From Candidatus Saccharimonadales bacterium (lineage in GTDB: Bacteria; Patescibacteriota; Saccharimonadia; Saccharimonadales; JAYRRP01), in the NCBI GenBank assembly GCA_041910055.1, contig JAYRRP010000003.1:301973-365972 (forward strand): DNA of 64,000 nt, given 5' to 3'. The notes under the pieces were generated by a model. It was not told the origin of the DNA. It made no database searches and saw nothing but the letters and a program-made list of their open reading frames with translations. The position numbers and the translations under genes are program-made. Below, piece by piece: positions 19,368 to 64,000 of this stretch (position 1 is the stretch's first letter; each line of letters starts with the position of its first letter).

Positions 19368-19374
19368 TCACGTC

Positions 19375-20592: not shown

Positions 20593-20694
20593 CTCTCAGG
20601 GGCCTGGGGAAAACCCCCTTGCTTTTTAAGCACAAGCACATTAATATGCTTGCATAAGCATAAACTATAAACAACCACAGGGGGGCATAAATCA

Positions 20695-23987: not shown

Positions 23988-24014
23988 AGGTATATACTAG
24001 GGGTAAATAAGCAT

Positions 24015-38089: not shown

Positions 38090-38196
38090 AATTTAGCCCC
38101 AAAAAAGCTTGACCTTAACAGATTACTGCCTCTATAATGTTTATGTACAAATCTTAAATAAAAAATACTAAAACAAAAGATGCGGGGCGGTCACGC

Positions 38197-41124
38197 GTGA
38201 ACCCCTTACAAACAAATCCTTCGACTGATGCCACCAAAGTGGCGCAAGAACCGCTGGTAGAGGCGGCTTCGTTGGAGGCACCTGAGACGCCAGAAGTGGC
38301 CCCTGCCCAAACTGGACAAACGCCGGCTATTCCACCGAAGAAACCTGGTGCTTTCTTGCTGCTCAAAAAGATTTTTGGCAATAAATTTTTACGATTTGGT
38401 CTGGTGACAGTGGTGATTATCACTGTTATTTTACTTTTGCTGTCAATGTGGTGGTCAAAACGGCACAACGTGGGTCCAAACGACCAAGCAGTAAACGACC
38501 AATTCTCAACAACTACGGTGCCGCTCAATGTGGGCAGTGACGGATCAGCTGAAATTAACCAAAAGAAGGTGTCCGTAAACGGTAACGTGAAGATCTTAGG
38601 TGCTTATACGTTGGTGCCAAGTGAGCGACCAAATAACCCGGTGCCTGGCCAGCAATATATCGACAATAAAGATTTTCGTTTATACGTGTTCAACGGTAGT
38701 GAATGGATTTCGCAACTTAATGTGGCCGACCTGAACAGCTTAAATGTAAGCATTGCGAACAATTTGCAAGCGGCCAATGCCCAGATAACAAACTTGCAGG
38801 CACAAACTGCCACCATTGGAAATGTGGCGACCCAGGCAGCAGAGACGCCGCCATTTACGTTGCCGGGTGAAACAACCCTCCAAGGCAATACCTTCAACGG
38901 GGCAAGCCAACTAGTACAGCTCACTGGCGGTGGTTTACTTCCAGCATTAGACGCGTCCAATCTCCTCAATCTAAATGCAAGTAATATTTCTAGTGGTACT
39001 CTTTCAGATGCCAGGTTATCTACGAACGTAACCCTCCAAGGCAATACCTTCAACGGGGCAAGCCAACTAGTACAGCTCACTGGCGGTGGTTTACTTCCAG
39101 CATTAGACGCGTCCAATCTCCTCAATCTAAATGCGAGCAACATAACCACTGGTACATTAGCGGATGGCAGGCTGTCAGCAAATGTCGCTTTGCTTGATCG
39201 AGCAGGCCAAATCTTTACCGGAGATGGACAGATATTTAAGGGCTCCAGTTCTTCGGCTTTTCAGCTACAAAATTCACTGGGAAGTGCATACTTCTTCGGT
39301 GATAGTAGTGGGTCAACGATTGGGGTGGGGGCATTAGGTGCAGATGTCAAACTCAACATCGAGACAAGTGATAATATTGCTCTGCGCGCCAACCAAACGG
39401 GCAGTGATGACTTAGTGCAGCTGGCATCAGGTGGCACAAATGTCATCACCATAAGTAGTACGGGTGCAAGTTTGTTTAAGAATACCGCTAACAGTACTTC
39501 TGCCTTTTCGGTGCAAACTTCGGGCGGCGGTACCGCGCTTAACGTTGATACCACAAATAGCCGGGTGAGCGTCAATAAATCCAGCGCTGCCTACCCTCTT
39601 GAAGTTGGAGGTAGTGTGGGTATAGACAATACGGGTGATGCTTCTGGTATTGGTTTGTATATAGGCGGGACGCAAGTTTGTAATGTTGCCGGCTGTATCT
39701 CAGCGTCAGGGGGCGGAGGAGGCATAAATAACAGCACTACCTTACAATTGAGCGCGAATTTCGCGATTCAGGGGACTGTACTAGATACCACGAACCCGAC
39801 TGCCCGGATACGCCAATACAATGGCCAAACAACCTCGCTTTTACAGGTAGAGAATTCCAGCGGCGGTAAGATCGCCAGCGTCAATTCAAATGGGATAACT
39901 CTTGGCGCAAAGCCTGATAGTACCGATTCGTCATTTACCAAAATAACGCCATTTGTGCAACAGGGTATACCATATGTGGCCGAAGGCAGTTATCTAGGTG
40001 ATGGAACAAATAATCGTATTGTGCCTCTTTCTGGGGGTTTTGGTACGCCAAAGCTTGTGATGATAACTGAAGGTACGGTTGGCAACAACCCAGTCTCTCC
40101 GCCATTACTCAGGATTGATGGCATGCAAAGTGGGACGTGTAATGCGAGTAACCCGAACAACTGTTTGGCTCGTGGGTTTAACGACGGCAGTACCAGCACG
40201 ACTGCGAATAGTATTAGTGCGTTTGAGATTGACCAATTTAGAGTGGGAGTAAGTACTGCTGGCATAGCGAGCAGCAATACTTTAAACAAAACATATCATT
40301 ATTTGGCGGTGTCAGCTGCGAGCAATGCGGTAACTTCGGGAAATAGTACGGCTGATAATTATATGGCTTACGGGACGTACAGCGGCAATGGTATAGCTGG
40401 CCGCAATATTAGCTTTACCCCACCATCTGGTAGCTGGACACCTGACATGGTGATAGTTTCTCGCTACTCCGGTGGAGGGAGCACTGGTGCCTACCCTGTC
40501 TTTACCACAAGTAGTATGCCCGCTAGCCATACTGTACCCTTTACAGCTGCCAATTTCGGTGTCTATGGTAACGCCATTACTGCGCTAGGCAGCAACGGCT
40601 TTACGTTAGGGAGTGATAGTTATGTAAATCAAAATGGGATCAGTTATGCATGGTTTGCTATTAAGAAAGCTCCCAATTTATTTGATACAAACACCTATGG
40701 TGGTACTGGTACGACAGCGACACATAACTTTGCATCTGGTTACACGGCCCAGCCGGACTGGGTGACTACTAAAGTAGATAATTGGAATAATCCCCCTGCG
40801 AGCGGTTCGCCCCAAAGTTATACCAATATTAAATCCAGCTCTATGTCAGGCAACCGTTCTTATTCATCACTGAATGGTGAGAAAACCACGGCGATCACGG
40901 CCTTGAACCAAGGGATACCTTCTTCGTTTACAGTGGGCAGTGAAGCGACAGCCAACGCTATGGATGGTGCGCCGCCTGGTACCACCTATTGTGGAACAAC
41001 CTGTACATACTATTGGTTTGGGTTCAGCAAAAACCTACCGAATTTTAATGATGATTTTATCGGCGGGGGGCAACCTACAAGGGCAAATTGTATGCTTCTC
41101 TTAGCTATGAAAATGGTTGTGTAG
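38197..41124 (+). CDS. Giant surface protein, N-terminal part (TM anchor, tail-fibre-like repeats); reading frame ends just after a G6 tract
   Basis: TM FLRFGLVTVVIITVILLLLSMWW. Duplicated 52-aa unit TLQGNTFNGASQLVQLTGGGLLPALDASNLLNLNASN.... Frame 1 terminates 52 nt after gggggg (41065-41070). Confidence 0.75.
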   Translation: MNPLQTNPSTDATKVAQEPLVEAASLEAPETPEVAPAQTGQTPAIPPKKPGAFLLLKKIFGNKFLRFGLVTVVIITVILLLLSMWWSKRHNVGPNDQAVNDQFSTTTVPLNVGSDGSAEINQKKVSVNGNVKILGAYTLVPSERPNNPVPGQQYIDNKDFRLYVFNGSEWISQLNVADLNSLNVSIANNLQAANAQITNLQAQTATIGNVATQAAETPPFTLPGETTLQGNTFNGASQLVQLTGGGLLPALDASNLLNLNASNISSGTLSDARLSTNVTLQGNTFNGASQLVQLTGGGLLPALDASNLLNLNASNITTGTLADGRLSANVALLDRAGQIFTGDGQIFKGSSSSAFQLQNSLGSAYFFGDSSGSTIGVGALGADVKLNIETSDNIALRANQTGSDDLVQLASGGTNVITISSTGASLFKNTANSTSAFSVQTSGGGTALNVDTTNSRVSVNKSSAAYPLEVGGSVGIDNTGDASGIGLYIGGTQVCNVAGCISASGGGGGINNSTTLQLSANFAIQGTVLDTTNPTARIRQYNGQTTSLLQVENSSGGKIASVNSNGITLGAKPDSTDSSFTKITPFVQQGIPYVAEGSYLGDGTNNRIVPLSGGFGTPKLVMITEGTVGNNPVSPPLLRIDGMQSGTCNASNPNNCLARGFNDGSTSTTANSISAFEIDQFRVGVSTAGIASSNTLNKTYHYLAVSAASNAVTSGNSTADNYMAYGTYSGNGIAGRNISFTPPSGSWTPDMVIVSRYSGGGSTGAYPVFTTSSMPASHTVPFTAANFGVYGNAITALGSNGFTLGSDSYVNQNGISYAWFAIKKAPNLFDTNTYGGTGTTATHNFASGYTAQPDWVTTKVDNWNNPPASGSPQSYTNIKSSSMSGNRSYSSLNGEKTTAITALNQGIPSSFTVGSEATANAMDGAPPGTTYCGTTCTYYWFGFSKNLPNFNDDFIGGGQPTRANCMLLLAMKMVV
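38874..39185 (+). repeat. Tandem 2 x 156-bp in-frame repeat (first 105 bp of each unit identical)
   Basis: 38874-38978 is identical to 39030-39134. The remaining 51 bp of each unit is diverged but homologous. Confidence 0.9.
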
Positions 41125-43178
41125 TCTATAGGTATGACGGCAATGGCGCGTGGACGGCGCTCAATTCTGAAGGTATTCTCATTCCTCCAACAAGTGTTTC
41201 AACACCCGAGTCCACTCCTTTTATTGACTCGATATCAGTCATGAAAGTGTTTGATGGCAAGCTGTTTGTCGGCACGAGAACGAATACAGGCGAAGGGGCT
41301 GTCTATACCTATAACCCTAGTCAAAGTACTGATAGAGGTTGGACACGTTTGAATGCCACGCTTGGAACGTTTGGTTCTACAACAGGGGTAGATGGAGTCG
41401 CTTCTATGGCGGTTGTCAATGGCACGCTCTTTATTGGTACGCGCAAAACGAACGACGCTGAGGTGTATAGGTATGAAGGAGGGACTACGCTTACGCTCAC
41501 AAACGGGTCGAGTACGGGAGGGCTCAGCACAGTCGATCCAAGCGGCGACGTGATAGATGCGATTAATCTTGTCAACTACGGTGGACGGTTGTTTGCAGGC
41601 CTGGAAACTGGTACCGATAGTGCTGCGAGGGTATACCGCTGGGGTGGGGCAGATTGGTTTATGCTCAATACTACGGCCGGCAGGTTTGAGACCACAACCG
41701 GAATTAATGATGTTACCTCACTTATCACGTATAATGGTTCTCTGTTCATAGGGGTAGCAGACGGTGCAGATTCGGCAGAGATTTATCGTTACAACGGCAA
41801 TCCGGATAGTGGCTCGCATACCAGCGTGGCCTTTACCCGCGTTTCGGGTTCCACGCCGGGTATTCTGGCCACTTCAACGGATGTAGTAGACAGTATTCGG
41901 ACCTTTACTGTATACAACGGGCGACTCTACGCTGGTACAGACACAGGAAGCGGTACTAACAAAGGAGCTATCTATGAATTTGATGGGGTAAGTAGCTGGT
42001 CTGTACTTAATCCAAGCGGCGAAGGTAATTTTGGTGAGAATAGTATAGACGGGGTTTCTTTACTATTGCCGGTCAATGATTCGTTGTATGTGGGTACGGT
42101 GGAACCAGCAGCAAGTACAACGACCAATGTCTATTACTTTAAGAAGACATCCAGTAACAGTTATGCACTGCAGTTTACCGCGGATGGTGATGGCTCATTT
42201 GATAATATTGGATCAATTAGCTTTATGGCAGGCGACCAGTCGAGCAGTACATTTGCCAACCAGGGGCAATTCTTGGTGTCTCACTCATTTAGTTTTACCG
42301 CGGCAGCTTATGACATTGCCGAAGATTACGCCACGCTTGATGACGAAGTTGAATCCGGCAGTGTAGTGGCGATTGATCCTGAAAACCCTGGTGGGTATGT
42401 ACGGGCTGCCAATATTAATAAGGGTGATGGACTGCGTCTGCTCGGCATAGTCTCCACAAAACCTGCACTTAGGTTGTCGCAGAAACTTGATTATGACCCT
42501 ATATCGGGTAGCCGTACTCTACCAGTTGCTCTGGCAGGTCGCGTACCCGTAAAAGTAGATCCTGAGTCAGAGGATATCAAACCTGGTGACTTCTTAACCG
42601 CCAGCACTACGCGTCCAGGCTATGCCACGAAAGCCGACAACGGTTTTGTGATAGCCAAAGCGCTTGAATCCTGGAATAAAGGCAGCGATAAAACTTTGGA
42701 CGTGTTTGTGACGAACGCCTTCGCGGCCACTGGACAGATAGCTGGCATGAGCCCAGCAGAATCGCGCACGCTCACAGATGGGCAGGTATCCGTTCTTGAT
42801 GCCTTTGCTTTCACGGTTGACGGTGGGTTAAGGATGTTGAAAGACATAAACTTTATTGGCAAAGTCTTCTTTGAAAACGAAGTTACTTTCAAAGATCGGG
42901 TCTTCTATGGGGATAAGGACTTTGCTGGTTATGCAGCCATTGAAGCCGGCGATAAGGAAGTAAGGATAAAATACAAGAAACCGTATGCCGAAAAGCCGAT
43001 TGTGTCTGTGTCGCCTAAGAGCCTGGTGCAATACCACATAGAAGACGAGACTCCAGAAGGATTTGTTATAAAAATCGACCAGCCTTCGGATAAACAAATC
43101 CAATTCAGCTGGATCGCACTCCAAGTTAAGGATTCCGCCACGTATAATAGTAAAGACGTGACGAGTGCATCGAACTAA
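41088..43178 (+). CDS. Giant surface protein, C-terminal part (beta-propeller-like repeats + C-terminal domain); probably one gene with 38197..41124
   Basis: At least 6 repeats of the type [FY]xG[KRS]L[FY][VA]G...[VI]Y[RT][YW]...W..LN. The frame is open back to 41055, and the first repeat (TYKGKLYASLSYENGCVVYRYDGNGAWTALN) starts upstream of any start codon. Confidence 0.75.
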   Translation: MYASLSYENGCVVYRYDGNGAWTALNSEGILIPPTSVSTPESTPFIDSISVMKVFDGKLFVGTRTNTGEGAVYTYNPSQSTDRGWTRLNATLGTFGSTTGVDGVASMAVVNGTLFIGTRKTNDAEVYRYEGGTTLTLTNGSSTGGLSTVDPSGDVIDAINLVNYGGRLFAGLETGTDSAARVYRWGGADWFMLNTTAGRFETTTGINDVTSLITYNGSLFIGVADGADSAEIYRYNGNPDSGSHTSVAFTRVSGSTPGILATSTDVVDSIRTFTVYNGRLYAGTDTGSGTNKGAIYEFDGVSSWSVLNPSGEGNFGENSIDGVSLLLPVNDSLYVGTVEPAASTTTNVYYFKKTSSNSYALQFTADGDGSFDNIGSISFMAGDQSSSTFANQGQFLVSHSFSFTAAAYDIAEDYATLDDEVESGSVVAIDPENPGGYVRAANINKGDGLRLLGIVSTKPALRLSQKLDYDPISGSRTLPVALAGRVPVKVDPESEDIKPGDFLTASTTRPGYATKADNGFVIAKALESWNKGSDKTLDVFVTNAFAATGQIAGMSPAESRTLTDGQVSVLDAFAFTVDGGLRMLKDINFIGKVFFENEVTFKDRVFYGDKDFAGYAAIEAGDKEVRIKYKKPYAEKPIVSVSPKSLVQYHIEDETPEGFVIKIDQPSDKQIQFSWIALQVKDSATYNSKDVTSASN

Positions 43179-43198
43179 AGAACAGGGAAAAGAAAGTA

Positions 43199-43642
43199 AT
43201 GAAAAAAGCGACATCATTGTTGCGCAAAGCTGATTTGGGGGTAAGGTCTTCTGCTAAACGCAGTTGGCGTCAGGTGATGACAAACCGCAAGCTTCGCCTT
43301 GTCTTATTGGGGGTGGTAGCAGTGATAATCATTGTGGTAGTGGTTAATTTTTTCCGACTGCAGCGTAAGAATCATTTGCTTAAAACGAACCCCAGGGCAG
43401 TGCAACAAGATGAAGAAAAGAAGTATGTTTCGCAGTTACGACACCTGACCTACCCACCCGAAAAAGAAACACCGACAATAGCGATTATCACCGATGCGGA
43501 TAAGGCCCGCCAGCAAAATAGCGGATTCTACAAGCAGGCTAAGAATGGCGACGTGGTCGTGAAATATAAGTCTATTGCTTACATTCTTGATGCCAAAAAC
43601 GACAAATTAGTCAATATTGCGCCTGTGTACGACGAGCAATAA
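43199..43642 (+). CDS. Single-pass membrane protein, hypothetical
   Basis: 147 aa with TM LRLVLLGVVAVIIIVVVVNFF. Confidence 0.55.
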   Translation: MKKATSLLRKADLGVRSSAKRSWRQVMTNRKLRLVLLGVVAVIIIVVVVNFFRLQRKNHLLKTNPRAVQQDEEKKYVSQLRHLTYPPEKETPTIAIITDADKARQQNSGFYKQAKNGDVVVKYKSIAYILDAKNDKLVNIAPVYDEQ

Positions 43643-43658
43643 AGGAACCTAGCTGGCT

Positions 43659-43973
43659 CTATAAGTCGCGTAGGCCTCTGGGGCCCATATATTGTTGGAT
43701 CTTATTGTCAGTATCGGGATTCAAGTAGTAGTCTATTGAGCCATAGTGGAGGGCATCTCTACCTAAAAGGTCGGCCACAATCTGTAACCGGTGTTTTTCT
43801 GATGAATCGAGTTCCTCGACAGGATTGCAGAACATGTCCACTTTTTCCAGTATTTCATCCCTCTCTTCTTTAGAAAGTAGAGGCAATAGGTGCCTGGATG
43901 GGGAGCTTATGCCGCCGTTTTCAATAATGTAGTTATCGTAAATCTCGGATGCGAGTTCTCTTGAGTTTTCCAT
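43659..43973 (-). CDS. Hypothetical protein, 104 aa
   Basis: ORF only, acidic, no motif recognised. Confidence 0.45.
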   Translation of the reverse strand: MENSRELASEIYDNYIIENGGISSPSRHLLPLLSKEERDEILEKVDMFCNPVEELDSSEKHRLQIVADLLGRDALHYGSIDYYLNPDTDNKIQQYMGPRGLRDL

Positions 43974-44199
43974 GGTTAACTATTCCTTCGTTTGGGAAAG
44001 TTATAATAGTAAAAAAGAGAGCAAGTGTCAAATAAAATTACCAATGTAACTCTGTGATAGGTAAATAATATATCATAGGCGATATATAACTTATACCCAG
44101 GTTCTTTGTGTAAAAAACAATATTTAAGTACTAGCCATATGTTACCAATATTGTTATGATGGTTCTTGTCAGGTGAGTTTTGCGAGCTGTTTGCTCGAT

Positions 44200-44246
44200 A
44201 AGCTGGTTAAACATCATGCGAGAGTGTTTAACCAGCTTTTATTTTG
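44200..44246 (+). promoter_or_regulatory. Terminator-like hairpin in the thrS 5' leader (possible attenuator)
   Basis: 13-bp stem aagctggttaaac/gtttaaccagctt followed by ttatttt, 62 nt upstream of the thrS ATG. Confidence 0.5.
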
Positions 44247-44307
44247 CGACTTTCATATGGGTAGTGTCCTTTGGCCTCCAAAGTGGGGAGTGATATGATG
44301 GGAAGCA

Positions 44308-46170
44308 ATGGGAATAGAGGATACTTCATTACAAGACAATCTCCATGCGATGCGTCATAGTGCGGCGCATGTTTTGGCGTCGGCTGTGCAAACACTGTGG
44401 CCAGAGGCAAAATTTGGGGTGGGGCCGGTAGTGGAGAATGGATTTTATTATGATATAGACTTGGGTGATCAAAGTGTATCTGAGGAGGATTTTGGCCGGC
44501 TAGAGGCTGAAATGAAACGAATTATCTCTGAGGATCAGCCATTTATCCGTAGTGAGAAGCCTATTGATGAAGCAATTGCCTGGGCGAATTCAAGTGAGCA
44601 ACAGTACAAACTAGAACTTCTGCACGACCTTAAGCGGGCTGGCACGACGCTTGAGAAGGATCTCGACCCCGAGGAACTTGGCACCATTACCGGGGAAGAT
44701 AGCGCTGTCGATACCGTCTCTTTTTATCAAAATGGTGATTTTACTGACCTGTGTCGCGGGCCGCATGTAGAATCAACCGGTAAAATTGGAGCCTTCAAGC
44801 TTATTCGTATCTCTGGTGCTTATTGGCGCGGCAACGAAAAGAAACCGCAGCTGCAGCGGGTATATGGCGTGGCTTTTGAGACCAAAGAAGAGCTTCAGGA
44901 ATACTTGAAGCAGGTGGATGAGGCAAAGGCCAGGGATCACCGCAAACTTGGTCAGGATCTGGACTTGTTTACATTTTCTGATCTTGTCGGTGCCGGTTTG
45001 CCGCTTTACACCCCCAGAGGAACAGTCCTAATTGAGCAGATAAAAGCAGCGCTGAGTGACATTAGCCGCCGCTATGACATGCAGCCGGTTTCTATTCCGC
45101 ACCTTGCGAAACTCGACCTCTATAAGCTCTCTGGGCATGCCGAAAAGTTTGAGGCTGAACTTTTCAGGGTAACCAGCCATTATGGACAGGAATTTGTACT
45201 TAAGCCAGTCAACTGCCCGCACCATACGCAGATCTATGCCTCCCGACAGCGGAGCTACCGGGATTTACCACTTCGTTATATAGAGCAGACGATGCAGTAT
45301 CGTGATGAGAAGCCTGGACAGATTGGTGGATTGCAGCGAACACGCGGCTTTACCGTTGATGATGGCCATACTTTTTGCCGCGTCGACCAGATTGAAAAAG
45401 AAGCGACAACGATTGTGCAAATTATCCAAGAGTTCTATGAAAAGCTAGGCCTATGGGGTCAACACTGGGTATCACTCTCAGTCCGTGATCCAAGCGCACC
45501 AGAAAAGTACATTGGTGAGCCGGATGACTGGGATGAAGCCGAGTCCATGCTCAAGGATGTATCTGACAAATTGGGACTTCAGGCAAAGCGTATGGAGGGT
45601 GAAGCGGCATTGTATGGTCCAAAGCTGGACTTTATGTTTAAGGATGCACTAGGCCGGGAAACACAGTTAGCGACCATACAGATAGATTTTGCGATGCCCA
45701 AACGATTTGGCCTAAGCTACACTGCTCAAGACGGAAGTGAGCAGGTACCAGTGATAATTCACCGGGCTATCCTCGGCTCATTTGAGAGGTTTATTATGCT
45801 TTTAATAGAGCATTTTGCTGGCCGTTTCCCGGTTTGGCTGGCGCCGGAGCAGGTTCGGGTAGCCACCTTGAACCAAGAAGATAAGATTGTGAACTATGCG
45901 AATGAAGTGTTAGCTAACGCGAAAGCTTTGGGGCTAAGGGTTACGCTCGACAATGCCAGTGAATCTGTAGGGAAGAAAATCCGTAATGCCGAGCTTATGA
46001 AAGTACCTTACACGCTAGTCATAGGTGGCAAAGAAGTGGAAACTGGCCAGGTGACACCGCGAGTGCGCACTGACTTAGGTGGGGCGACCTCCCAAACGCT
46101 TTCGCTTGAATCATTTCTTCAGAAGATCGCCGCCGAAGCGCAGCAACGCCTGACTAAATCATCTCTCTAG
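44308..46170 (+). CDS. thrS: Threonyl-tRNA synthetase (lacks N-terminal TGS domain)
   Basis: MRHSAAHVLASAV (editing-domain HxxxH), ARDHRKLGQDLDLF, class II motifs (FRVTSHYGQEF..., RGFTVDDGHTF), and a C-terminal anticodon-binding domain. Confidence 0.93.
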   Translation: MGIEDTSLQDNLHAMRHSAAHVLASAVQTLWPEAKFGVGPVVENGFYYDIDLGDQSVSEEDFGRLEAEMKRIISEDQPFIRSEKPIDEAIAWANSSEQQYKLELLHDLKRAGTTLEKDLDPEELGTITGEDSAVDTVSFYQNGDFTDLCRGPHVESTGKIGAFKLIRISGAYWRGNEKKPQLQRVYGVAFETKEELQEYLKQVDEAKARDHRKLGQDLDLFTFSDLVGAGLPLYTPRGTVLIEQIKAALSDISRRYDMQPVSIPHLAKLDLYKLSGHAEKFEAELFRVTSHYGQEFVLKPVNCPHHTQIYASRQRSYRDLPLRYIEQTMQYRDEKPGQIGGLQRTRGFTVDDGHTFCRVDQIEKEATTIVQIIQEFYEKLGLWGQHWVSLSVRDPSAPEKYIGEPDDWDEAESMLKDVSDKLGLQAKRMEGEAALYGPKLDFMFKDALGRETQLATIQIDFAMPKRFGLSYTAQDGSEQVPVIIHRAILGSFERFIMLLIEHFAGRFPVWLAPEQVRVATLNQEDKIVNYANEVLANAKALGLRVTLDNASESVGKKIRNAELMKVPYTLVIGGKEVETGQVTPRVRTDLGGATSQTLSLESFLQKIAAEAQQRLTKSSL

Positions 46171-46173
46171 CAC

Positions 46174-46488
46174 ATGAAGCAATCACAAGACAATTTTCGA
46201 GCGTTGGTATATGAAGTGGTTGCTCAGATTCCACGAGGCCGAGTAATGACGTATGGCCAAATTGCTACTTTGTGCGGAAGGCCGCGGGCGGCACGGATTG
46301 TGGGTGGTATTGCTCACTGGGGTGATCCTCAGCTACCTTGGCAGAGAGTTGTCAAAAAGACCGGCCATTTGGCTGAGGGTTACCCAGGCGGAGTGACTGG
46401 GCATGCTGAGGCGCTTCGATCAGAAGGTATAGACGTCCTGGCAGACTACACAGTTGATGTTCAAGGATTACTGTGGGAACCAAATTAA
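46174..46488 (+). CDS. Alkyltransferase-like (ATL) protein, MGMT DNA-binding domain without the active-site Cys
   Basis: IPRGRVMTYGQIATLCG..., with PWQRV in place of the PCHRV active site (Cys replaced by Trp, as in ATL proteins). Confidence 0.75.
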   Translation: MKQSQDNFRALVYEVVAQIPRGRVMTYGQIATLCGRPRAARIVGGIAHWGDPQLPWQRVVKKTGHLAEGYPGGVTGHAEALRSEGIDVLADYTVDVQGLLWEPN

Positions 46489-47249
46489 CCCCTCTAGTTA
46501 CTGTGGTGGGGCCAACTGCTTCGGGCAAGACAGCGCTCGCTATTGAACTTGCCGAGAAGTTTCAGGGTGAAATAATATGTGCGGACTCGCGGACTGTCTA
46601 CAAAGGCATGGATATTGGCACCGCCAAACCTTCTCATGAGGAACGAAAGCGTATACCTCATCATCTGCTTGATGTAGTGCAACCAGACCAAGAGTTCAAT
46701 GTAGCTGATTTTAAACGGCTGGCTGAAGCTTCAATAAGTGATATACAGGCAAGCGGGAAATTACCGATTATGGTAGGAGGTAGTGGCCTCTACATTGACT
46801 CGGTGTTGTTTGATTATAAGTTTGCTGCCAAAGATGCGCCTCGTGACACACAAAACCCCAGGCACTTAAGCAAGGAAGTACATCAGCAAAAGAGCAGCCT
46901 TAGGCCGCAAACCCTTATTATCGGGCTTGATGTTAATAGGAACGAGCTTAAAACCAGGATTGAAAAGCGGGTTGACGTCATGGTTCAAGCAGGCCTAGTT
47001 GAGGAAGTGGAGCAGTTGCTTGCGACTTATCCTCATAGCAAAGCACTCCTGGCGCCTGGCTATAAAGCATTTGCGGAATTCGTACAGGGCCGTTTGAGCT
47101 TGGATGAGGCAAAAGCTTTGTTCATTCAGAATGATAGGCAACTCGCTAAAAGACAACGCACCTGGTTTAAGCGGAACAAAAGTATTCACTGGCTGAGTGA
47201 CCCCAAGGAATCTGTAGCTATAGTCACAACATTTTTGAACAATTTATAG
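46473..47249 (+). CDS. miaA: tRNA dimethylallyltransferase
   Basis: VVGPTASGKTALAIELA..., ICADSRTVYKGMDIGTAKP..., IPHHLLD. GTG start overlapping the previous gene. Confidence 0.9.
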   Translation: MGTKLTPLVTVVGPTASGKTALAIELAEKFQGEIICADSRTVYKGMDIGTAKPSHEERKRIPHHLLDVVQPDQEFNVADFKRLAEASISDIQASGKLPIMVGGSGLYIDSVLFDYKFAAKDAPRDTQNPRHLSKEVHQQKSSLRPQTLIIGLDVNRNELKTRIEKRVDVMVQAGLVEEVEQLLATYPHSKALLAPGYKAFAEFVQGRLSLDEAKALFIQNDRQLAKRQRTWFKRNKSIHWLSDPKESVAIVTTFLNNL

Positions 47250-47284
47250 AGATAACCACTCCCATTGTCTGTTACAATACAAAT

Positions 47285-47896
47285 ATGATTGAGCAATTGT
47301 TTGGGTCAAAAACTCGGGTGAAACTACTACAGCTTTTTTATACGAATCCCAACCGTTCATTTTATGTACGGGAAATTACTCGCAAAATCGGGGAACAGAT
47401 TAACTCCGTGCGACGCGAACTTGCCAACCTCTTGAGCATAGGGATTATCTCTTCTGATACCAATAACAACCGGCTTTATTACGAAGTAAACCAACAGTAT
47501 GAATTTTACGGATCTTTGTCTGAGATTTTTGGCAGCGGCAAACCGGCCACGAAATCCAAGAAAACCACACTCCCCACTCAACCCGGTGAGGAGATCAGTA
47601 GTATTGGTAATATCGACCTGGCACTTTATACCGGTCAATTTACCAGAGATGAGAGCAGCGGTATTGACCTGCTGGTCGCTGGCGACATTAACTCAACCAA
47701 ATTAGCTAAGTTCGTGCGCGAACTTGAATCTAAAGAAGGCAAAGAGATCCGTTATACAGTCATGACGAGAGGTGAATTTGAATATCGCCAGCAAGTAAAG
47801 GATAAGTTCCTCACTAAGGTACTGGCTTCTAAGAAGCAGGTATTAGTTGATAAGCGCCGTTTATTAGAAACGTCAGCGAAAAGTAAAGGAAAATAA
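47285..47896 (+). CDS. Winged-helix (ArsR-like) transcriptional regulator with C-terminal domain
   Basis: LFGSKTRVKLLQLFYTNPNRSFYVREITRKIGEQINSVRRELANLLSIGII. Confidence 0.6.
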   Translation: MIEQLFGSKTRVKLLQLFYTNPNRSFYVREITRKIGEQINSVRRELANLLSIGIISSDTNNNRLYYEVNQQYEFYGSLSEIFGSGKPATKSKKTTLPTQPGEEISSIGNIDLALYTGQFTRDESSGIDLLVAGDINSTKLAKFVRELESKEGKEIRYTVMTRGEFEYRQQVKDKFLTKVLASKKQVLVDKRRLLETSAKSKGK

Positions 47897-47899
47897 CCT

Positions 47900-48529
47900 A
47901 TGGAAGTGCAGTATTACGGGGGAAACTGTGTTCGGATTACAACCAAAAAAGCATCAGTAATAGTAGATGATAACCTTGAGGAATTAGGGCGGTCAGCACA
48001 AGTTAAAAAGGATGAAATTGCAATTTACACCGGGCCTCATGCATTGCCCAAAGCCCCAGTTAAATTGATTATTGATCAGCCCGGTGAGTATGAGATATCT
48101 GATGTGTCGGTCCAAGGTATCGCTGCGCGGGCTCATATTGATGAGCCTGGCCAGAAATCCGCTACCATGTATCGCTTGATTGCTGATGATATCCGTATAG
48201 GCCTTATAGGGCATATTTACCCTGAGTTGAGTGAAGCTCAACTTGAATCGCTAGGAACAATTGATTTGCTGTTTGTGCCAGTAGGCGGGAGCGGATTTAC
48301 GCTTGATGCGGTCGGGGCGCTTCAGGTAATTAAAAAGGTTGAGCCAAAAATTATCATCCCAACTTACTATGCGGATAGTCAGCTCCGTTATCCTGTTCCA
48401 CCGGTGGCACTGCCAGCGGCCCTAAAGGAAATGTCTATGGAGCCAAAAGAAACAGTCGGAAAATTAAAGATGAAAGCAGTTGACTTAATAGGTGATACCA
48501 CGCAGATGGTGGTAATAGAGCGTCAGTAG
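47900..48529 (+). CDS. Metallo-beta-lactamase-fold (UPF0173-like) hydrolase
   Basis: 209 aa, MEVQYYGGNCVRITTKKASVIVDD..., PVGGSGFTLD. Family-level resemblance only. Confidence 0.5.
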   Translation: MEVQYYGGNCVRITTKKASVIVDDNLEELGRSAQVKKDEIAIYTGPHALPKAPVKLIIDQPGEYEISDVSVQGIAARAHIDEPGQKSATMYRLIADDIRIGLIGHIYPELSEAQLESLGTIDLLFVPVGGSGFTLDAVGALQVIKKVEPKIIIPTYYADSQLRYPVPPVALPAALKEMSMEPKETVGKLKMKAVDLIGDTTQMVVIERQ

Positions 48530-48554
48530 GGTTATTGATTGAAGTAGCTGGGTG

Positions 48555-48773
48555 CTACTTGCTTTTCTGTGCGGGCGTAGTAGAGCTCAGGAGGTTCTTT
48601 TTCTTGAGGGTGCGCAAAGCTTGGGTGCTGACTTTCATCCGCACTTTTTGGCCATCAATAGTGAGGGTCTTCATCTGTAAATTTGGCTTCCAAACTTTTT
48701 TGGTATGGCGCTGCGAAAAACTGACATTATGGCCATACTGCTTTCCTTTGCCGGTGAGTTCACATCGTTGCAT
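48555..48773 (-). CDS. rpmB: 50S ribosomal protein L28
   Basis: MQRCELTGKGKQYGHNVSFSQRHTKKVWKPNLQ.... Confidence 0.92.
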   Translation of the reverse strand: MQRCELTGKGKQYGHNVSFSQRHTKKVWKPNLQMKTLTIDGQKVRMKVSTQALRTLKKKNLLSSTTPAQKSK

Positions 48774-48886
48774 TAGAGGTTTTCCTTTAGATTCAAGGTG
48801 TAATTTTACCCGATAATCTATTAGAGGTCAATCACCTTAGAGAGAATTTATCTCGAGGATATAGGGACTGCTATACTACTTGAGGT

Positions 48887-49516
48887 ATGCTACTTGATTT
48901 ACGGCCCGGTGACTTACTGATAGTTTTTATCACGATACTCCTATCTATGGCTATCCATGAGGCAATGCACGCTTTTGTTGCCCATTCTCTAGGGGATACT
49001 ACTGCCCGCGAAGAAGGCAGACTTACTTTAAACCCCCTGAAACATGTCGATCTCTATACCACGGTACTGTTGCCAATTGTGCTGATATTGTTGAGATTGC
49101 CACCGTTTTTTGTTGCAAAACCAGTGCCTTTCAATCCTACGCGTGTGCGCTATGGAGAATTTGGTGCAGCTTTGATTGGTATCGCTGGACCGCTGACCAA
49201 CTTAGCTTTAGCTGCTTTTGCAGCTGCTATTGTGAGGGTAGGTGGGATTGCGGTTGGGACCAGCACGTACAACATCTTTAGCATTTTCATTCTTATTAAC
49301 CTGGCATTTTTTGCTTTTAATATGATCCCGTTTCCGCCGCTGGATGGTTCACGCTTGCTTTATGCGTTTGCACCGGAACCATTGCAACGGATAATGCTTC
49401 AAATTGAATCAGCCGGCTTCCTGACCATAATCATATTCATGCTGATACTATTTCCCTTTGGCGCTCCCTTACTCAGTAACACGATTGAAATTTTATATAG
49501 ATTTTTGCTGGGATAA
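48887..49516 (+). CDS. Site-2 protease family (peptidase M50) membrane metalloprotease
   Basis: HEAMHAF (HExxH) in TM1, NLAFFAFNMIPFPPLDGSRL (the NxxPxxxLDG motif), multi-TM. Confidence 0.8.
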   Translation: MLLDLRPGDLLIVFITILLSMAIHEAMHAFVAHSLGDTTAREEGRLTLNPLKHVDLYTTVLLPIVLILLRLPPFFVAKPVPFNPTRVRYGEFGAALIGIAGPLTNLALAAFAAAIVRVGGIAVGTSTYNIFSIFILINLAFFAFNMIPFPPLDGSRLLYAFAPEPLQRIMLQIESAGFLTIIIFMLILFPFGAPLLSNTIEILYRFLLG

Positions 49517-49757
49517 CGGTAGATTTAGGGCGTATAATAATTAGTGGCTGGAACACACCAACGCCATGATTATCTGAATGATTAACAAAAGGGAGTCCAA
49601 TATTTTTAGCAGCTGAGGCTGCTATGTGAGGACACCCATCTGCCTTTGGCAGATTAATCATGTTGGTAATCCAGCTGCTAAGGCACTCTTTACGGAGTGC
49701 CTTTTTAAAGGCCGTTCTAAAAATCTCATCTTAATCTTTGGTATAGTAAAGAAGTTC

Positions 49758-49981
49758 CGGGGTGTGGCGCAGTTGGCTAGCGCGCATTACCCCATAAGAA
49801 CTTTAAAAACGACAGGGTGTAGCTTAGTTGGTAAAGCGCTGGGCTGGGGGTCCAGAGAGCGGAGGTTCAAGTCCTCTCACCCTGACCAAAGTTCTTATGG
49901 GGACCCCGTTTACGGCTGGGGGCCGTGAGGTCGCAGGTTAGCTCCGCGCGAAGCCGGAGCGCTGTCCTGTCACCCCGACCA
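49758..49981 (+). ncRNA. Interrupted tRNA-Pro(GGG)-like gene hosting a complete tRNA-Pro
   Basis: 5' CGGGGTG-TG-GCGC-AGTTGGCTA-GCGC-G (acceptor + D arm), then a 126-nt insert. After it come the anticodon arm TACGG-CTGGGGG-CCGTG, variable AGGTC, and T stem GCAGG/CCTGT enclosing TTAG + a 21-nt insert + TGT. The 3' end is CACCCCG-A-CCA, complementary to the 5' acceptor. A TGgTATAGT promoter sits at 49738-49746. Confidence 0.6.
49813..49888 (+). tRNA. tRNA-Pro (anticodon GGG), CCA encoded, nested in 49758..49981
   Basis: CAGGGTG acceptor, D arm GCTT-AGTTGGTA-AAGC, anticodon arm CTGGG-CTGGGGG-TCCAG, T arm GGAGG-TTCAAGT-CCTCT. 76 nt. Bracketed by the 15-bp inverted repeat ccccataagaacttt (49790-49804) / aaagttcttatgggg (49888-49902). 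Confidence 0.88.
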
Positions 49982-52106: not shown

Positions 52107-52483
52107 GCCAGATTGTTGGCTGGCCGCCCTATGTTTCGGCGTAGGGAGGAAAGTCCGGGCAGCATAGGGAGAGGCAGTTGCTAACGGCAACCGGAGGAAA
52201 CTCCAGGGAAAGTGCCACAGAAACTAAACCGCCCTTCATTTGAGGGGCAAGGGTGAAAAGAGCGGGGTAAGAGCCCGCAGTTATGTGCGGTGACGTACGT
52301 AAGAGGTAAACCCTGTCTGCTGCAAGGAGATCGGCCCGTTAGTGACCTTAAGGTTGCGGTTTCCCGCCAGGGCTGGTCATATATCCGCTCGATCCAGATG
52401 GTGACATTTGGACAAGATAGATGGTCAGCGCGTTTTCGTACTTGTACGAGAGCAAACAGAACCCGGCTTATAGATTTTCTGGC
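52107..52483 (+). ncRNA. rnpB: RNase P RNA (bacterial type A)
   Basis: GGAGGAAAGTCCGGGC (P4 5' strand), GGTAAGAGCCC, ACAGAACCCGGCTTA (P4 3' strand), and P1 pairing gccaga/tctggc. TATAAT at 52095-52100. Confidence 0.92.
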
Positions 52484-52484
52484 A

Positions 52485-52516
52485 TAAAAAACCACCGAAG
52501 TCTTCGGTGGTTTTTG
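52485..52516. terminator. Bidirectional rho-independent terminator (rnpB / rplT)
   Basis: aaaaa-accaccgaag-t-cttcggtggt-ttttt. Confidence 0.85.
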
Positions 52517-55176: not shown

Positions 55177-56046
55177 AGTATTTAGTTGTATACTCCAAAC
55201 CCGTCAAGATTCAAAGCATAAGCAAATAACAAAATCCCGCCTTCAGGTGTGGGCGGGATTTTGTTGGTGTTTTTGGTTTAAGGTTTTGGTGTTAGGAGCT
55301 TTTCATGGAACAACGGCTTGCGAGAAGCCGTTGTTTTTGTTCTTTTTGTTTTTGAGCACTTTTTTTATTCAGTGCTGATCCTATCTTATAAAGCGCCTTT
55401 TTTTCTGTCAACACGTTTATGGCAAAAAGTTTTCTAACCTGTGTATAACTTTCTCCAAATATGTGGGAAATAAAGAGCATCTTCTATTCACATAATAGAT
55501 TGGATGAGGTCAGTGGAGTAGCAATTATCTCACAAGCAACCTCACACACGTTTTTAAATTTTCATTACCAATGCTATCCATGCATACACTGCAGATAAAT
55601 AATTTTGGGGGGCAATATGGGCGCTTTTGTTGGGTTTTCATAATACTGGGTTGCTCCAATCTCTATTTCAATGTTTTCTAGTTCATTAGTTGTGGTATAA
55701 CTTTCAGATTTTTTAAAGGCATTTAGTCGCAAGACGTACGTTATTGAGGTTTTAGTTAAAAATGTACAGATTTTTGCGGCTTAACAAACAAATGGTCGTA
55801 AATCATACAAAGCAGCAGGCGGTTAGAGTGGGTACTCATTTATCAGGGTTACTAAATCATTCAATCACTTTTTTATCCAGAAAAGTGGTTTTGTGTGGAT
55901 GTTTTATTGCTGTGTCGTGCAGAATAAATAACAACAATATATAATTAGTTCCGTTCTTCATGAGTCATGCTATGAAAAGAGTAACATTGCATAATAAACA
56001 ACAAAAAACTATTGACATACTGTATTCATAGTAGTATGGTTTTATT

Positions 56047-56188
56047 GGAAGTGATAAAACAAACATTCACTTTTATATAAATATTTCGCTCTTTGTTCGC
56101 CTAGCGGCGAAAAGAGCGGTCAGTCACAGCTCGGACGGTAAGCGCTAACAATTACAAAAGGGCGGATTTACCGTCCAGCTTCTTTTTT
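56047..56188 (+). ncRNA. Candidate small RNA or cis-regulatory leader (promoter- and terminator-bounded)
   Basis: TTGACA (56012-56017), 17 nt, TATGGT (56035-56040). Long hairpin cgctctttgttcgcc/ggcgaaaagagcg. Terminator ggacggtaa...ttaccgtcc + cttctttttt ending about 56188, 55 nt before the 56244 ORF. No known RNA family recognised. Confidence 0.35.
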
Positions 56189-56243
56189 GGGACTATTTAA
56201 GTCATACTAATCTCAAATGGGAATAATTAAGTAATTCTATCTG

Positions 56244-56600
56244 ATGAGTAATTGGAAAAAGTTTGGTTTACTCCTTATCCTTTACGGGGGGTTTATAGTA
56301 TTCTTGCTTACTACCAATCCTGCTTCACTACCTCTTCCTCTGTTAATATTGCCGTTTGCTTGGCTTTACCTCTGTTTGTTGGTGGCTGCCTACTATTTCT
56401 TAAAAACTATCAAAAGAATAATGGGAAGGAAATCCGCGGGCCGTAGCCGTACAATAATATTTGCCTCGCTTATTGCCTTGGTCCCAGCTAGTCTTTTGGT
56501 GTTGCAATCTATTGATCAGCTGAGCACAAAAGATGTCTTATTGATGGGTGTATTTGTCTTGCTTTTATCATTTTACCTAAGCCGGGTAAGAGTTTCTTAG
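56244..56600 (+). CDS. Small integral membrane protein (4 TM), hypothetical
   Basis: 118-aa hydrophobic ORF, first gene of the plus-strand cluster 56244-60141. Confidence 0.55.
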   Translation: MSNWKKFGLLLILYGGFIVFLLTTNPASLPLPLLILPFAWLYLCLLVAAYYFLKTIKRIMGRKSAGRSRTIIFASLIALVPASLLVLQSIDQLSTKDVLLMGVFVLLLSFYLSRVRVS

Positions 56601-57111: not shown

Positions 57112-60100
57112 ATGCCGTTTTTCTTGTCTGTTATCGTAATTCTTCTTGTGCTGGCAGCGGCAACTGGTATCGTGCTCTATTTCCAATCAAGGAAATTACT
57201 GCGCGAACAAAAGAATTTTGAGCGGGGCCTCAAAATGGTACCACTCTTGATCCACCTGCCACCTATTAGTGAAGATACAGAGGAGAGTGGCCGCGACGTT
57301 CGTGACGTGATAGACGAAAATATCTCTAAAGCACAAGTGCTTTATAGTATTATTGCCAGTACTCTTAAGAAAGGCTTTAAGAATAAGTTCTATGGCCAGC
57401 GCCATTTTGCATTTGAAATCATTGGCGAGAAGGGATTTGTCCATTTTTATGCCGCTGTTCCGGTAGCTATGGTAGATGTGGTCAAACAAGCAGTAGTAAG
57501 TGCATATCCTGCTGCCCAGCTCGAAGAAGCGCCAGAACATAATCTTTTTAGTCCTACAGGACGCATCAGCGGTACATTAGGTGGCGAGCTGACCCTCAAA
57601 GAGAACTATGCTTATCCAATTGCTACTTATCAGGAGATAAAACGGGATGCAATTCAAGCGATTTTGAGTGCACTTTCATCTTTGGATAAAGAAGATGGCG
57701 CAGGCATACAAATTCTGCTTCGACCTGCTGATCCTTCTTGGCGGAAAAATGCACAGTCGGTCGCAAGCCAAAAACGAAAAGGATCTGGTAATGGAGGAGA
57801 AAGCAGCGGTGCTTTAAACTGGATGCGTCAATTAGGCGTGGCAGTAGTTAAGCCACCTGAACCAAAAGCTGGTGGTGATTCTCCATCTAAGCCTGAGCTC
57901 TCTAGCCTCGACCAAGCTATTGTGGATGCGATTGATGACAAAACCCGATATCCAGCCTATGAAGTGCTTATTAGAGTCATCGCATCGTCGAATGTTGCAC
58001 AACGTTCACAGGCAATTCTGAGCAATATAGTTGCTGCTTTTTCATTATTTGATGCACCGGGTAAGAATGGCTTTAAATATACTGAATCAAAGGATATAGA
58101 GAACTTTGTCACCGCATTTATACTACGATTCTTTCCTCAGGAAAGTAACAAAAGCGTATTAAATGCAGTCGAATTAGCAACACTATTCCATTTTCCAGAC
58201 CAACGAAATATTCCTACTTCGCAAGTTGAAAGACAAGGTTCAAAGCAGGTTGATGGTCCGCGTAATATGCCAGAAGACGGACTACTGCTTGGCTATAACA
58301 TTTTTCGTGGTACCAAAAAACCAGTTCGTTTAGGCCAGGAAGATCGCCGGCGGCATATGTATGTAGTGGGACAAACTGGAGTAGGAAAATCTGTATTTTT
58401 AGAAAATCTGGCGCTCCAGGATATGGTAGAGGGCCGCGGCTTTGCTTTTGTGGATCCTCATGGTGAGAGCGCTGAAAGACTTATGGGTATGGTTCCCAAA
58501 GAGCGTACGGAAGACGTTATCTATTTCTCCCCGGGTGAAACAGATTTTCCTCTCGGTCTTAACTTGTTTGAATTCCATAATCCAGACCAGAAGGATTTTA
58601 TTATTCAAGAGGCTATTAATATGTTGGAGAAGCTGTATGACCCTAACCACCAAGGGATTGTGGGCCCTCGTTACCATCATCTCTTCCGTAACGCAGCTCT
58701 CACTGTCATGGCTGACCCAGTCGGAGGCACCTTCGTGGATATTCCTAAACTGTTCTCTGACCAGGCTTATGTACGCCATAAATTGCAGTATGTCACCGAT
58801 CGGTCAGTGATTGATTTTTGGACCAAAGAAGTGCCCGGGTCAGAACGATCGAGTGAGTTCGGGGAAGTTAAAAGTTGGTTTGTGAGTAAATTTGGCGCTT
58901 TCTTAAGTAATTCGATGATGCGGAACATTATCGGACAGTCAAAGAGTGCCTTCAATCTCCGCGATGTTATGGACAACAATAAGTTGTTATTTGTGAACCT
59001 GAGTAAAGGAAGGACAGGGGAACTAAACTCGAAACTGTTGGGTATGATATTCGTGATGAAGTTCCAGGCAGCTGCCATGAGCCGGGCAGATATCCCTGAG
59101 GACAAGCGGAATGATTTCTGTCTCTATGTTGATGAGTTCCAAAACTTCTCAACCGATTCATTTGCTACTATTCTCTCGGAAGCTCGGAAATATCGATTAA
59201 ATCTGATAGTTGCTAACCAGTTTACGACCCAATTGACTGATGAGATTCGGGATGCGGTGTTCGGGAACGTCGGTTCGATTACTGCTTTTCGAGTGGGCGC
59301 AGATGCAGATGCCGATGCGTTAAGCCGGAAGTTCCAACCAGTTTTTGACAGAGAAGATATCTTGAGATTGCCCAACTACAATACTATTACGCAGATTTTA
59401 ATTGGTGGGGTACCCACACAGCCTTTCAGTATGGCAACAGTGCCGCATATGGGGTCAGAGAATCCAGAGCTTGCCAAAGCCCTCAAACAGCTCTCTGCTG
59501 CAAAATATGGCCGACCAAGAGCTGTAGTCGAAAAGGAAGTAACAAACCGGCTATATGGTAACTCTGCACCTCAAACGCCAGCTGCAAATGCATTGGGTGG
59601 TGATGGAAGCAGACCAGGTGCATCGTCAAGCCGCCAAATGCCTAATTCTTTTGCGCAAGCCCCAGCACCAAGCACCAATAAACCACAGACGGGTTCGTCT
59701 TTCTTGGACGAATGGTTGGCGAAGAGACGCCAGACTCCTGGTAATAACCCAGTTGCAGGCAAGTCTTCTGTGACTGGTTCAGGATCAGCAGCTCCTACTA
59801 TGGCGACTACCGCTAGTCCCTCGACCTCCTTTGAGCCGCTTACCACTCATAAGACTGCTCAAGGGCAGTCACCTAGCGTGGGTCAGCCAAATAAGCCACC
59901 GCACCATCACGCAGGAGACCATCATCAATCGAGTCACCATCATCAGCAATCGTCATCCTCACACTCGCCGTCGCACCATGTTCATCCAGAGCCAAACATG
60001 AACCCCTCGGAAACTGATAGCAATCCTGTCTCTCAATCAGAGATAAAGACTGAGCCGGCAGACAATCCCCACGAGTTCCATATTAAAACGCACCATCCTT

Positions 60101-60141
60101 CAGCAAACAACGAACACACCATATACATCGATAAAGATTAA
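57112..60141 (+). CDS. Membrane-anchored P-loop NTPase, TraD/VirD4-like (type IV coupling protein / HerA-FtsK superfamily) with His-rich disordered tail
   Basis: N-terminal TM. Walker A VVGQTGVGKSVF, Walker B FCLYVDEFQNF, RKYRLNLIVANQFTTQL. The C-terminal ~200 aa are low complexity, ending HHHAGDHHQSSHHHQQSSSSHSPSHHVH. Confidence 0.6.
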   Translation: MPFFLSVIVILLVLAAATGIVLYFQSRKLLREQKNFERGLKMVPLLIHLPPISEDTEESGRDVRDVIDENISKAQVLYSIIASTLKKGFKNKFYGQRHFAFEIIGEKGFVHFYAAVPVAMVDVVKQAVVSAYPAAQLEEAPEHNLFSPTGRISGTLGGELTLKENYAYPIATYQEIKRDAIQAILSALSSLDKEDGAGIQILLRPADPSWRKNAQSVASQKRKGSGNGGESSGALNWMRQLGVAVVKPPEPKAGGDSPSKPELSSLDQAIVDAIDDKTRYPAYEVLIRVIASSNVAQRSQAILSNIVAAFSLFDAPGKNGFKYTESKDIENFVTAFILRFFPQESNKSVLNAVELATLFHFPDQRNIPTSQVERQGSKQVDGPRNMPEDGLLLGYNIFRGTKKPVRLGQEDRRRHMYVVGQTGVGKSVFLENLALQDMVEGRGFAFVDPHGESAERLMGMVPKERTEDVIYFSPGETDFPLGLNLFEFHNPDQKDFIIQEAINMLEKLYDPNHQGIVGPRYHHLFRNAALTVMADPVGGTFVDIPKLFSDQAYVRHKLQYVTDRSVIDFWTKEVPGSERSSEFGEVKSWFVSKFGAFLSNSMMRNIIGQSKSAFNLRDVMDNNKLLFVNLSKGRTGELNSKLLGMIFVMKFQAAAMSRADIPEDKRNDFCLYVDEFQNFSTDSFATILSEARKYRLNLIVANQFTTQLTDEIRDAVFGNVGSITAFRVGADADADALSRKFQPVFDREDILRLPNYNTITQILIGGVPTQPFSMATVPHMGSENPELAKALKQLSAAKYGRPRAVVEKEVTNRLYGNSAPQTPAANALGGDGSRPGASSSRQMPNSFAQAPAPSTNKPQTGSSFLDEWLAKRRQTPGNNPVAGKSSVTGSGSAAPTMATTASPSTSFEPLTTHKTAQGQSPSVGQPNKPPHHHAGDHHQSSHHHQQSSSSHSPSHHVHPEPNMNPSETDSNPVSQSEIKTEPADNPHEFHIKTHHPSANNEHTIYIDKD

Positions 60142-62189: not shown

Positions 62190-64000
<1,811 letters not shown>

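Follow-up and report, generated by a model that had tools for sequence, protein, structure and literature searches.

Two adjacent open reading frames (ORFs) on the forward strand of a 64,000-nucleotide stretch of contig JAYRRP010000003.1 from a Candidatus Saccharimonadales bacterium (the window, whose positions are used throughout) are, on the evidence of homology, the halves of one conserved gene of ~1,660 residues. The gene encodes a giant protein with a predicted N-terminal membrane anchor and a putative binding head at its C-terminal end, and its reading frame is broken at a run of six G nucleotides (G6) where the intact state was presumably G7. The explanation that we favor, at a probability of roughly 0.55, is a genuine and recent slipped-strand loss of one G from G7 in the dominant genotype, which would truncate the encoded fiber after its stalk and remove the putative binding head. 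Nothing shows the tract to be an evolved on/off switch, and the lesion is most likely an ordinary strain-specific frameshift. The features that define the break are the following.

38197 to 41124, + strand: ORF1, with a GTG start and 975 amino acids (aa), of which 958 are homologous residues and 17 form an out-of-frame tail; annotated by NCBI as a separate protein, P0001.
41065 to 41070, + strand: the G6 run (GGGGGG) at which the frame breaks, presumed intact state G7.
41071 to 41124, + strand: the out-of-frame ORF1 tail QPTRANCMLLLAMKMVV and its stop codon (17 codons plus stop, 54 nt), with no counterpart in any homologue aligned.
41055 to 43178, + strand: the downstream reading frame in full (707 codons and a stop), uninterrupted by any other stop or frame break.
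41088 to 41090, + strand: the TTG taken by the annotators as the start of ORF2 (P0121, 696 aa), inside strand B of the first blade of a modeled propeller.

At its C-terminal end ORF1 reads ...DDFIGGGQPTRANCMLLLAMKMVV followed by the stop, that is, ...NLPNFNDDFIGGG and then the tail QPTRANCMLLLAMKMVV, so that peptides such as ...GGGQPTR and ANCMLLLAMK belong to the tail end of the protein. Three stop codons at 41046-41054 directly precede the downstream open frame, which from 41055 translates as FYRRGATYKGKLYASLSYENGCVVYRYDG..., in a longer stretch as FYRRGATYKGKLYASLSYENGCVVYRYDGNGAWTALN..., and continues to 43178; its first start codon is the TTG at 41088. The zero-frame codons of ORF1 over the tract are GGC GGG GGG CAA and, with G7 restored, they become GGC GGG GGG GCA, encoding Gly-Gly-Gly-Ala. 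Adding one G to the tract gives an uninterrupted protein of 1,660 aa that reads ...DDFIGGGATYKGKLY..., with the junction peptide ...NFNDDFIGGGATYK... (...FIGGGATYK...). The position of the shift is limited by homology to 41062-41070, i.e. GGCGGGGGG, because the residues through the Ile (41059-41061) follow the frame of ORF1 and those from the Ala (41070-41072) follow the downstream frame. Within the whole 4,982-nt gene the G run at the break is the only homopolymer of at least 6 nt. A 2-nt deletion was also considered as the correction and rejected, because the three-residue spacing seen in all homologues is reproduced only by a +1 insertion. Much of this had been anticipated by the original prediction, which was made from the DNA sequence: the G6 at these positions, the frame open from 41055 with its only candidate start at the later TTG, and the fusion of the ORFs by one extra G are all confirmed. 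The ORF1 tail, which had been called implausible, is indeed without a homologue, although it measures 54 nt and not the 52 nt first given.

The strongest evidence that a single gene was split comes from its relatives. When the fused protein was used as the query, the matches comprised P0001 and a series of long single proteins, among them P0002 (1,650 aa; 51% identical, with 98% of the query covered) and P0003-P0012 (1,483-2,050 aa). Nine full-length homologues (1,483-2,050 aa) cross the junction gap-free once one G is added; thus, the fused DDFIGGGATYKGKLY aligns with VDGIGASATYRGKLY of P0003, and in a further alignment the window protein DDFIGGGATYKGKLYASL is matched by VDGIGASATYRGKLYTSS of P0003 and VNGYSASAVYNGKLYVAT of P0004. 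P0002 is also the positional orthologue. It lies on JAYRIP010000008.1, from the metagenome-assembled genome (MAG) Candidatus Saccharimonadales bacterium SZ_szas25bin.56, as a single 1,650-aa ORF in a gene order identical to that of the window, with common upstream neighbors (118 aa, a 536-aa glycosyltransferase, NrdR on the opposite strand, and 288 aa) and common downstream neighbors (142 aa, 109 aa on the opposite strand, and ThrRS). Among 82 loci surveyed by tblastn, including 79 family loci from the one-genome-per-species GTDB representatives, the sole frame break was in L003, which is the window's own strain; all 78 related loci of other species (L004-L082) were unbroken. A second-frame high-scoring segment pair in L026 was taken up as a possible further split gene and rejected, since it represents a separate downstream gene. 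Comparison with orthologues had been set beforehand as a check on the one-gene claim, and the claim came through it, with the syntenic orthologue in one piece and no locus of another species split. Because the homologues are gapless at the junction, the orthologue is a single ORF, and the loci of other species are unbroken, we interpret the two ORFs as one gene with a 1-nt deletion from the presumed G7. Full-length colinear homology and positional orthology place this gene in a P0002-like patescibacterial family of giant anchored surface fibers. Many third-party-assembled MAGs that bear family members (L013, L019, L027, L028, L031, and others) are titled "uncultured Gammaproteobacteria" or "Pseudomonadales," which probably reflects mislabeled taxonomy.

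The domain organization of the restored protein is as follows, with the folds of the three C-terminal features taken from structural models.

38386 to 38454, + strand: N-terminal hydrophobic segment FLRFGLVTVVIITVILLLLSMWW, residues 64-86, the single predicted membrane anchor, after a Pro/Ala-rich N terminus.
38874 to 39185, + strand: tandem duplication of a 156-nt (52-aa) tail-fiber-like repeat, TLQGNTFNGASQLVQL..., with copies 88% identical.
41055 to 42179, + strand: seven-bladed beta-propeller, residues 1-375 of the downstream frame in an AlphaFold2 model, with a fold like that of the Photorhabdus PLL/PHL lectins.
42306 to 42719, + strand: the most conserved domain of the family, from the AYDIAEDY motif onward, a beta-tulip fold like the C-terminal part of phi29 gp12 and capsid decoration proteins.
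42924 to 43124, + strand: C-terminal beta-sandwich, H-type-lectin-like by a sub-threshold Pfam match and a fold match.

The maximal Kyte-Doolittle mean over 19 residues is 2.76 at the anchor segment of ORF1, versus only 0.94 at the N terminus of ORF2, which therefore has no signal or anchor. Together with the homology across the break, the hydrophobic segment supports the earlier proposal that the two ORFs are the halves of one giant surface protein, with a membrane anchor now predicted at its N terminus. The stalk, ~500 residues that follow the anchor, contains the phage-tail-fiber-like repeats from which most database matches arise, some of these matches carrying Peptidase_S74, collar, or Kelch domains. 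Homologues have many more copies of the 52-aa repeat than the window gene, and the copy number is therefore probably variable. Tandem Repeats Finder returned nothing in the gene, the 156-nt duplication having come from a separate repeat search, and no paralogue of the gene was found in the 64-kb window. The central region after the stalk has no family match, and searches of Pfam, NCBIfam, and PDB sequences with both halves of the protein gave no significant family.

The downstream frame (707 aa) was modeled with AlphaFold2 from a 42-sequence alignment with a mean pLDDT of 78.7. In this model the propeller consists of seven four-stranded blades, with most 10-residue blocks at pLDDT 70-96 and low-confidence loops at residues 44-50 and 378-382, and Foldseek relates it to PLL/PHL with E ~1e-8. 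The repeat unit recognized earlier in the sequence is hence real, being the blade of the modeled propeller, and its first copy does begin upstream of the TTG: strand A of blade 1 is formed by residues 2-8 of the 41055 frame, on the G tract, and the TTG is residue 12, in strand B. The conserved domain that follows can be written as AYDIAEDY...LLGIVST.PA...VALAGRVPVKV...PGD, with invariant positions D, A, E, G..S..P, L.G.V, and GD, and it is spread over many Patescibacteria phyla. In the model built for the last 312 residues alone (pLDDT 82.5) it resembles immature phi29 gp12 (3suc) with a Foldseek E of 2e-4 over 180 alignment columns; it has no sequence match in Pfam or PDB. The domain contains an invariant D-x-A-E motif, which may be comparable with the D..E cleavage motif of phi29 gp12, as in autocleaving C-terminal chaperones of the MEROPS G2 type, and which may mark an autocleavage site. 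The C-terminal beta-sandwich matches Helix pomatia agglutinin in Foldseek (E ~6e-3) and Pfam H_lectin (PF09458) at E = 0.035 with 14.7 bits against a cut-off of 24; because this score lies below the gathering threshold we call the domain H-lectin-like and do not treat it as a demonstrated member. The C-terminal domain of the family is found in MAGs across many Patescibacteria lineages.

From these models the order from the N to the C terminus would be a short cytoplasmic segment, the single anchor, the tail-fiber-like stalk, the central region, and a distal head at the cell surface, the head likely comprising the lectin-like propeller, the beta-tulip domain, and the H-lectin-like domain as putative binding modules. 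The protein is probably a membrane-anchored, trimeric assembly of the phage-fiber type, and it is a candidate adhesin because its predicted distal head carries lectin-like modules. Some relatives (P0123 and P0073-P0083) have an N-terminal DNA-binding-type domain (MerR/HTH_17) before the anchor and the extracellular propeller, which is odd for a surface fiber.

The one strong promoter-like site stands ahead of the first half.

38109 to 38138, + strand: promoter-like site TTGACC-18-TATAAT, 11 of 12 matches, the best in the region and just 5' of ORF1.

No comparable site was found by consensus matching ahead of ORF2. Such sites are consensus matches only, and their total count in the region is at the level of shuffled sequence; with the sole strong one upstream of ORF1, the arrangement is consistent with ORF1 and ORF2 forming one transcription unit.

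Under the explanation that we favor, a slipped-strand deletion at 41065-41070 would have converted G7 to G6 in the dominant genotype of the sampled population, within a run whose codons specify the Gly-Gly-Gly linker that opens propeller blade 1. Cells of this genotype would then make an anchored stalk, 958 residues plus a junk tail of 17, that lacks the putative binding head, and ORF2 would hardly be expressed in a useful form, given its weak TTG start, its incomplete first blade, and the absence of any signal or anchor. The event is presumably recent or still polymorphic, given that no further lesion is seen in the 2.1 kb of the downstream frame, and reversion by regaining a G is mechanistically possible. 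If, by analogy with phage fibers, the C-terminal domain served to chaperone folding, the truncated product might even be wholly non-functional.

We compared the window with a second assembly to ask how firmly the G6 is supported. The Logan contig SRR26835473_755500 (L003; 10,680 bp), the sole contig reached via two neighboring genes, corresponds to window positions 39105-49784 with 0 mismatches and has the same G6, and the Logan gene calls reproduce the split as a 672-aa partial ORF and a 696-aa ORF. This contig, a de Bruijn product, begins inside copy 2 of the 52-aa repeat, at 39105. Because an independently run assembler thus gives an identical 10.7 kb including the G6, an assembler artifact is unlikely as the cause. 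The contigs of sister MAGs are named k141_, a MEGAHIT-style label, and this naming together with the perfect Logan identity suggests that the data are accurate short reads, in which consensus indels at runs of 6-7 nt are rare. As an internal control, a G7 at 20316-20322 lies in frame within an intact 405-aa T2SSF/PilC-like gene, and no other split gene was found in the 64-kb window. The overlap of the ORFs at 7585 and 7781 was examined as a second split gene and rejected; the real start there is probably the GTG at 7892, with a GAGGAG Shine-Dalgarno sequence before it and a signal peptide after it.

Tract length was also set against chance. The window contains five G runs of at least 6 nt, versus ~11 calculated from its base composition, and those other than the run at the break are the following.

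20316 to 20322: G7, the longest G run of the window.
20680 to 20685: G6.
55607 to 55612: G6.
56286 to 56291: G6.

When the codons of this Gly-rich gene are shuffled synonymously, 45% of the shuffles contain a run of at least G7, so the tract is not enriched over what composition and codon usage lead one to expect. At the tract site the homologues have S, A, P, or G residues and no G run, making the tract lineage-specific, and neither the homologues nor the surveyed family loci show a recurrence of the tract or of switching. An exact search for GATTTTATCGGC-N{5,10}-CAACCTACAAGG in genome and metagenome contig collections gave 0 matches and hence no second copy for comparison of tract length, and a 346-aa junction-peptide query of JGI metagenomes found no relative. 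No G7 allele appeared in the protein database, which is weak evidence because the searches also omitted the expected P0121 and P0002-P0012; likewise, a 183-aa junction-peptide search of proteins had no matches, not even P0001 or P0121, and is uninformative.

Alternatives to a genuine deletion were also weighed. In a sequencing or consensus indel the organism would truly be G7 and its 1,660-aa gene unbroken, a single G having dropped out in the reads or in the consensus. Homopolymer indels are the classic technical error, the break falls exactly on the gene's sole run of at least 6 nt, and the frame beyond it is fully intact; moreover, both assemblies probably use the same reads, so that an artifact at the level of the reads could still be shared by them, although we hold this improbable. 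Against such an error stand the agreement of two different assemblers on G6 within 10.7 kb of 100% identity, data that resemble accurate short reads, the in-frame G7 of an intact gene in the same window, and 64 kb in which no other broken gene was seen. We therefore regard it as unlikely, while counting it as the most serious of the alternatives; of the trivial explanation offered with the original prediction, the assembler part has been weakened and the read part not eliminated. Several considerations do weigh against a genuine deletion: the two agreeing assemblies probably derive from one run, which leaves room for an indel that recurs systematically in the reads at this tract; the platform is deduced only from contig naming and the perfect Logan identity; the undamaged downstream frame fits an error or a reversible switch equally well; and no second strain of the species was found in the collections searched, such that neither fixation nor polymorphism of the G6 is demonstrated.

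A rather more doubtful possibility is evolved phase variation, in which slipped-strand mispairing at a G7/G6 contingency tract would switch the binding head of the fiber between ON and OFF, most of the sampled population being OFF. The length of the tract does toggle the frame of a large surface protein, which G6 breaks and G7 restores to a 1,660-aa ORF that runs colinearly with the homologues; no lesion interrupts the 2.1 kb beyond it, as expected under regular re-expression; the break lies in a Gly linker at a domain boundary, so that the truncated product retains whole domains; and G7 is near the lower limit for calling phase-variable tracts in other bacteria. Yet the tract is short, and the scarcity of G runs in the window, the outcome of the codon shuffles, the absence of the tract from all homologues, the intact frames of every other family member surveyed, and the lack of a length-variant allele in any collection searched all speak against it, as does a literature search in which repeat-mediated phase variation was nowhere reported for Saccharibacteria, the papers pairing both terms concerning host or unrelated mechanisms. 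The earlier proposal of homopolymer-controlled switching is hence not supported, and we are slightly more skeptical again of the full claim, a working contingency tract by which Saccharimonadales cells would turn the lectin-like head of their giant anchored fiber on and off at random. Recoding, by which programmed -1 ribosomal frameshifting or transcriptional slippage would yield the full-length protein from the G6 template, appears very improbable. The zero-frame phase of the tract is C GGG GGG, which is no slippery heptamer of the form X XXY YYZ; for region 41050-41170 the computed folding energy is -30.4 kcal/mol and the mean of the shuffles -30.3 (z = -0.03), with 94/200 shuffles folding at least as well as the 100 nt downstream of the tract; the two-frame organization is conserved neither in the orthologue nor in any homologue, all of which are single ORFs; and known transcriptional slippage needs longer A/T runs. 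What can be said for it is that a P-site tRNA-Gly(CCC), which the window encodes, can re-pair perfectly one base back on GGGGGG to give exactly ...GGGATYK..., and low-level spontaneous slippage of this tRNA would yield the correct fusion; nothing suggests programming, and the programmed frameshifting raised earlier finds no backing here. The last reading, to which we give almost no credence, takes P0001 (975 aa) and P0121 (696 aa) as genuinely separate genes with independent starts, as the NCBI and Logan annotations both call them and as the weak AAGGG ahead of the TTG, the only such element there, might permit. It is contradicted by the orthologue, which is one ORF, and by the family survey; in addition, homology crosses the junction in a different frame and begins upstream of the TTG, ORF2 has no signal or anchor and would miss strand A of blade 1, the ORF1 tail is without a homologue, and the two complete homologues inspected (P0123 and P0129) carry parts N-terminal to the propeller.

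For annotation, the consequence is that P0001 (975 aa) and P0121 (696 aa) should be joined as one frameshifted gene or pseudogene. More broadly, they belong to an uncharacterized, Patescibacteria-wide family of giant anchored fibers with phage-like modules and lectin-like heads, which are plausible candidates for attachment of an epibiont to its host. If the frameshift is real, the distal head has been lost from this population or is silenced in it for a time, and the population would offer a natural knockout for linking this protein to host range. Were the head in fact switched, this might vary host attachment or evade recognition by phage or host, and a contingency tract here would be, to our knowledge and judging from the literature search, the first case of phase variation by simple repeats known from the Candidate Phyla Radiation (CPR). 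Reversibility would thus extend contingency-locus biology to the CPR, a claim that the present evidence does not justify.

Other observations concern the rest of the window. The G7 at 20316-20322 lies in a T2SSF/PilC-like type IV pilus platform gene (ORF 19375-20592), and is another tract at which a 1-nt slip would inactivate a gene for a surface organelle. The genome is otherwise tightly packed, but at 55177-56243 there is an AT-rich stretch of ~1.07 kb in which no ORF exceeds 62 aa and Rfam gave no match, and which holds the G6 at 55607-55612; ~0.9 kb beyond it is a VirD4/TraG-like coupling-protein gene (57112-60141), and the stretch may be the border of a mobile element. A second long stretch (~1.4 kb, 62056-63466) has no ORF of at least 80 aa by greedy ORF tiling. 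RNase P RNA (bacterial class A, 248 bits) is located at 52108-52486, and the overlapping ORF on the opposite strand (52181-52495) is almost certainly spurious. In the sequence ahead of the starts (for example, 20674-20694, 19354-19374, and 23994-24014), several genes show a purine/G-rich motif of the AGGGG(G) type at ~8-14 nt, and other genes have a TATAAT-like box immediately upstream; because of these two patterns, the genome appears to mix Shine-Dalgarno with leaderless or short-leader initiation.

A gene split by a homopolymer frameshift is a familiar phenomenon, and on present evidence not a new mechanism. The break shares with the programmed -1 sites of dnaX and of IS elements a downstream frame at -1 and a fusion product, but has no in-phase slippery heptamer, stimulatory structure, or conservation. 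With the poly-G contingency loci of Campylobacter jejuni and Neisseria (surface and LOS genes) it has in common a coding G run, a 1-nt toggle of the frame, and presumed slipped-strand mispairing; in contrast to these, the tract is only 6-7 nt, is not enriched, is expected from codon usage, and is not conserved, with no length heterogeneity observed, and its membership among contingency loci is not established. The domains likewise resemble known ones in their folds. The AYDIAEDY...ALAGRVPVK domain is similar to the phage phi29 gp12 pre-neck appendage (3suc) and to capsid decoration proteins (Foldseek E = 2e-4 to 1e-3), although it has no sequence-level match to Pfam or PDB. The propeller has the same seven-bladed fold as Photorhabdus PLL/PHL (PDB 5c9l, 6rg2, and 5mxf; Foldseek E ~1e-8, target-normalized TM-score 0.6-0.65), but with an identity of only 14-16% the likeness is at the level of the fold, and the propeller here is one module of a giant anchored fiber. 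The closest parallel is with ordinary frameshifted genes, the incipient pseudogenes of MAGs and isolates in which one 1-nt homopolymer indel divides a gene, still whole in the syntenic orthologue, into what annotators call two ORFs; the gene described here differs from them in showing no secondary decay and in encoding a giant surface protein of the host-interaction type, the loss of which may matter phenotypically.

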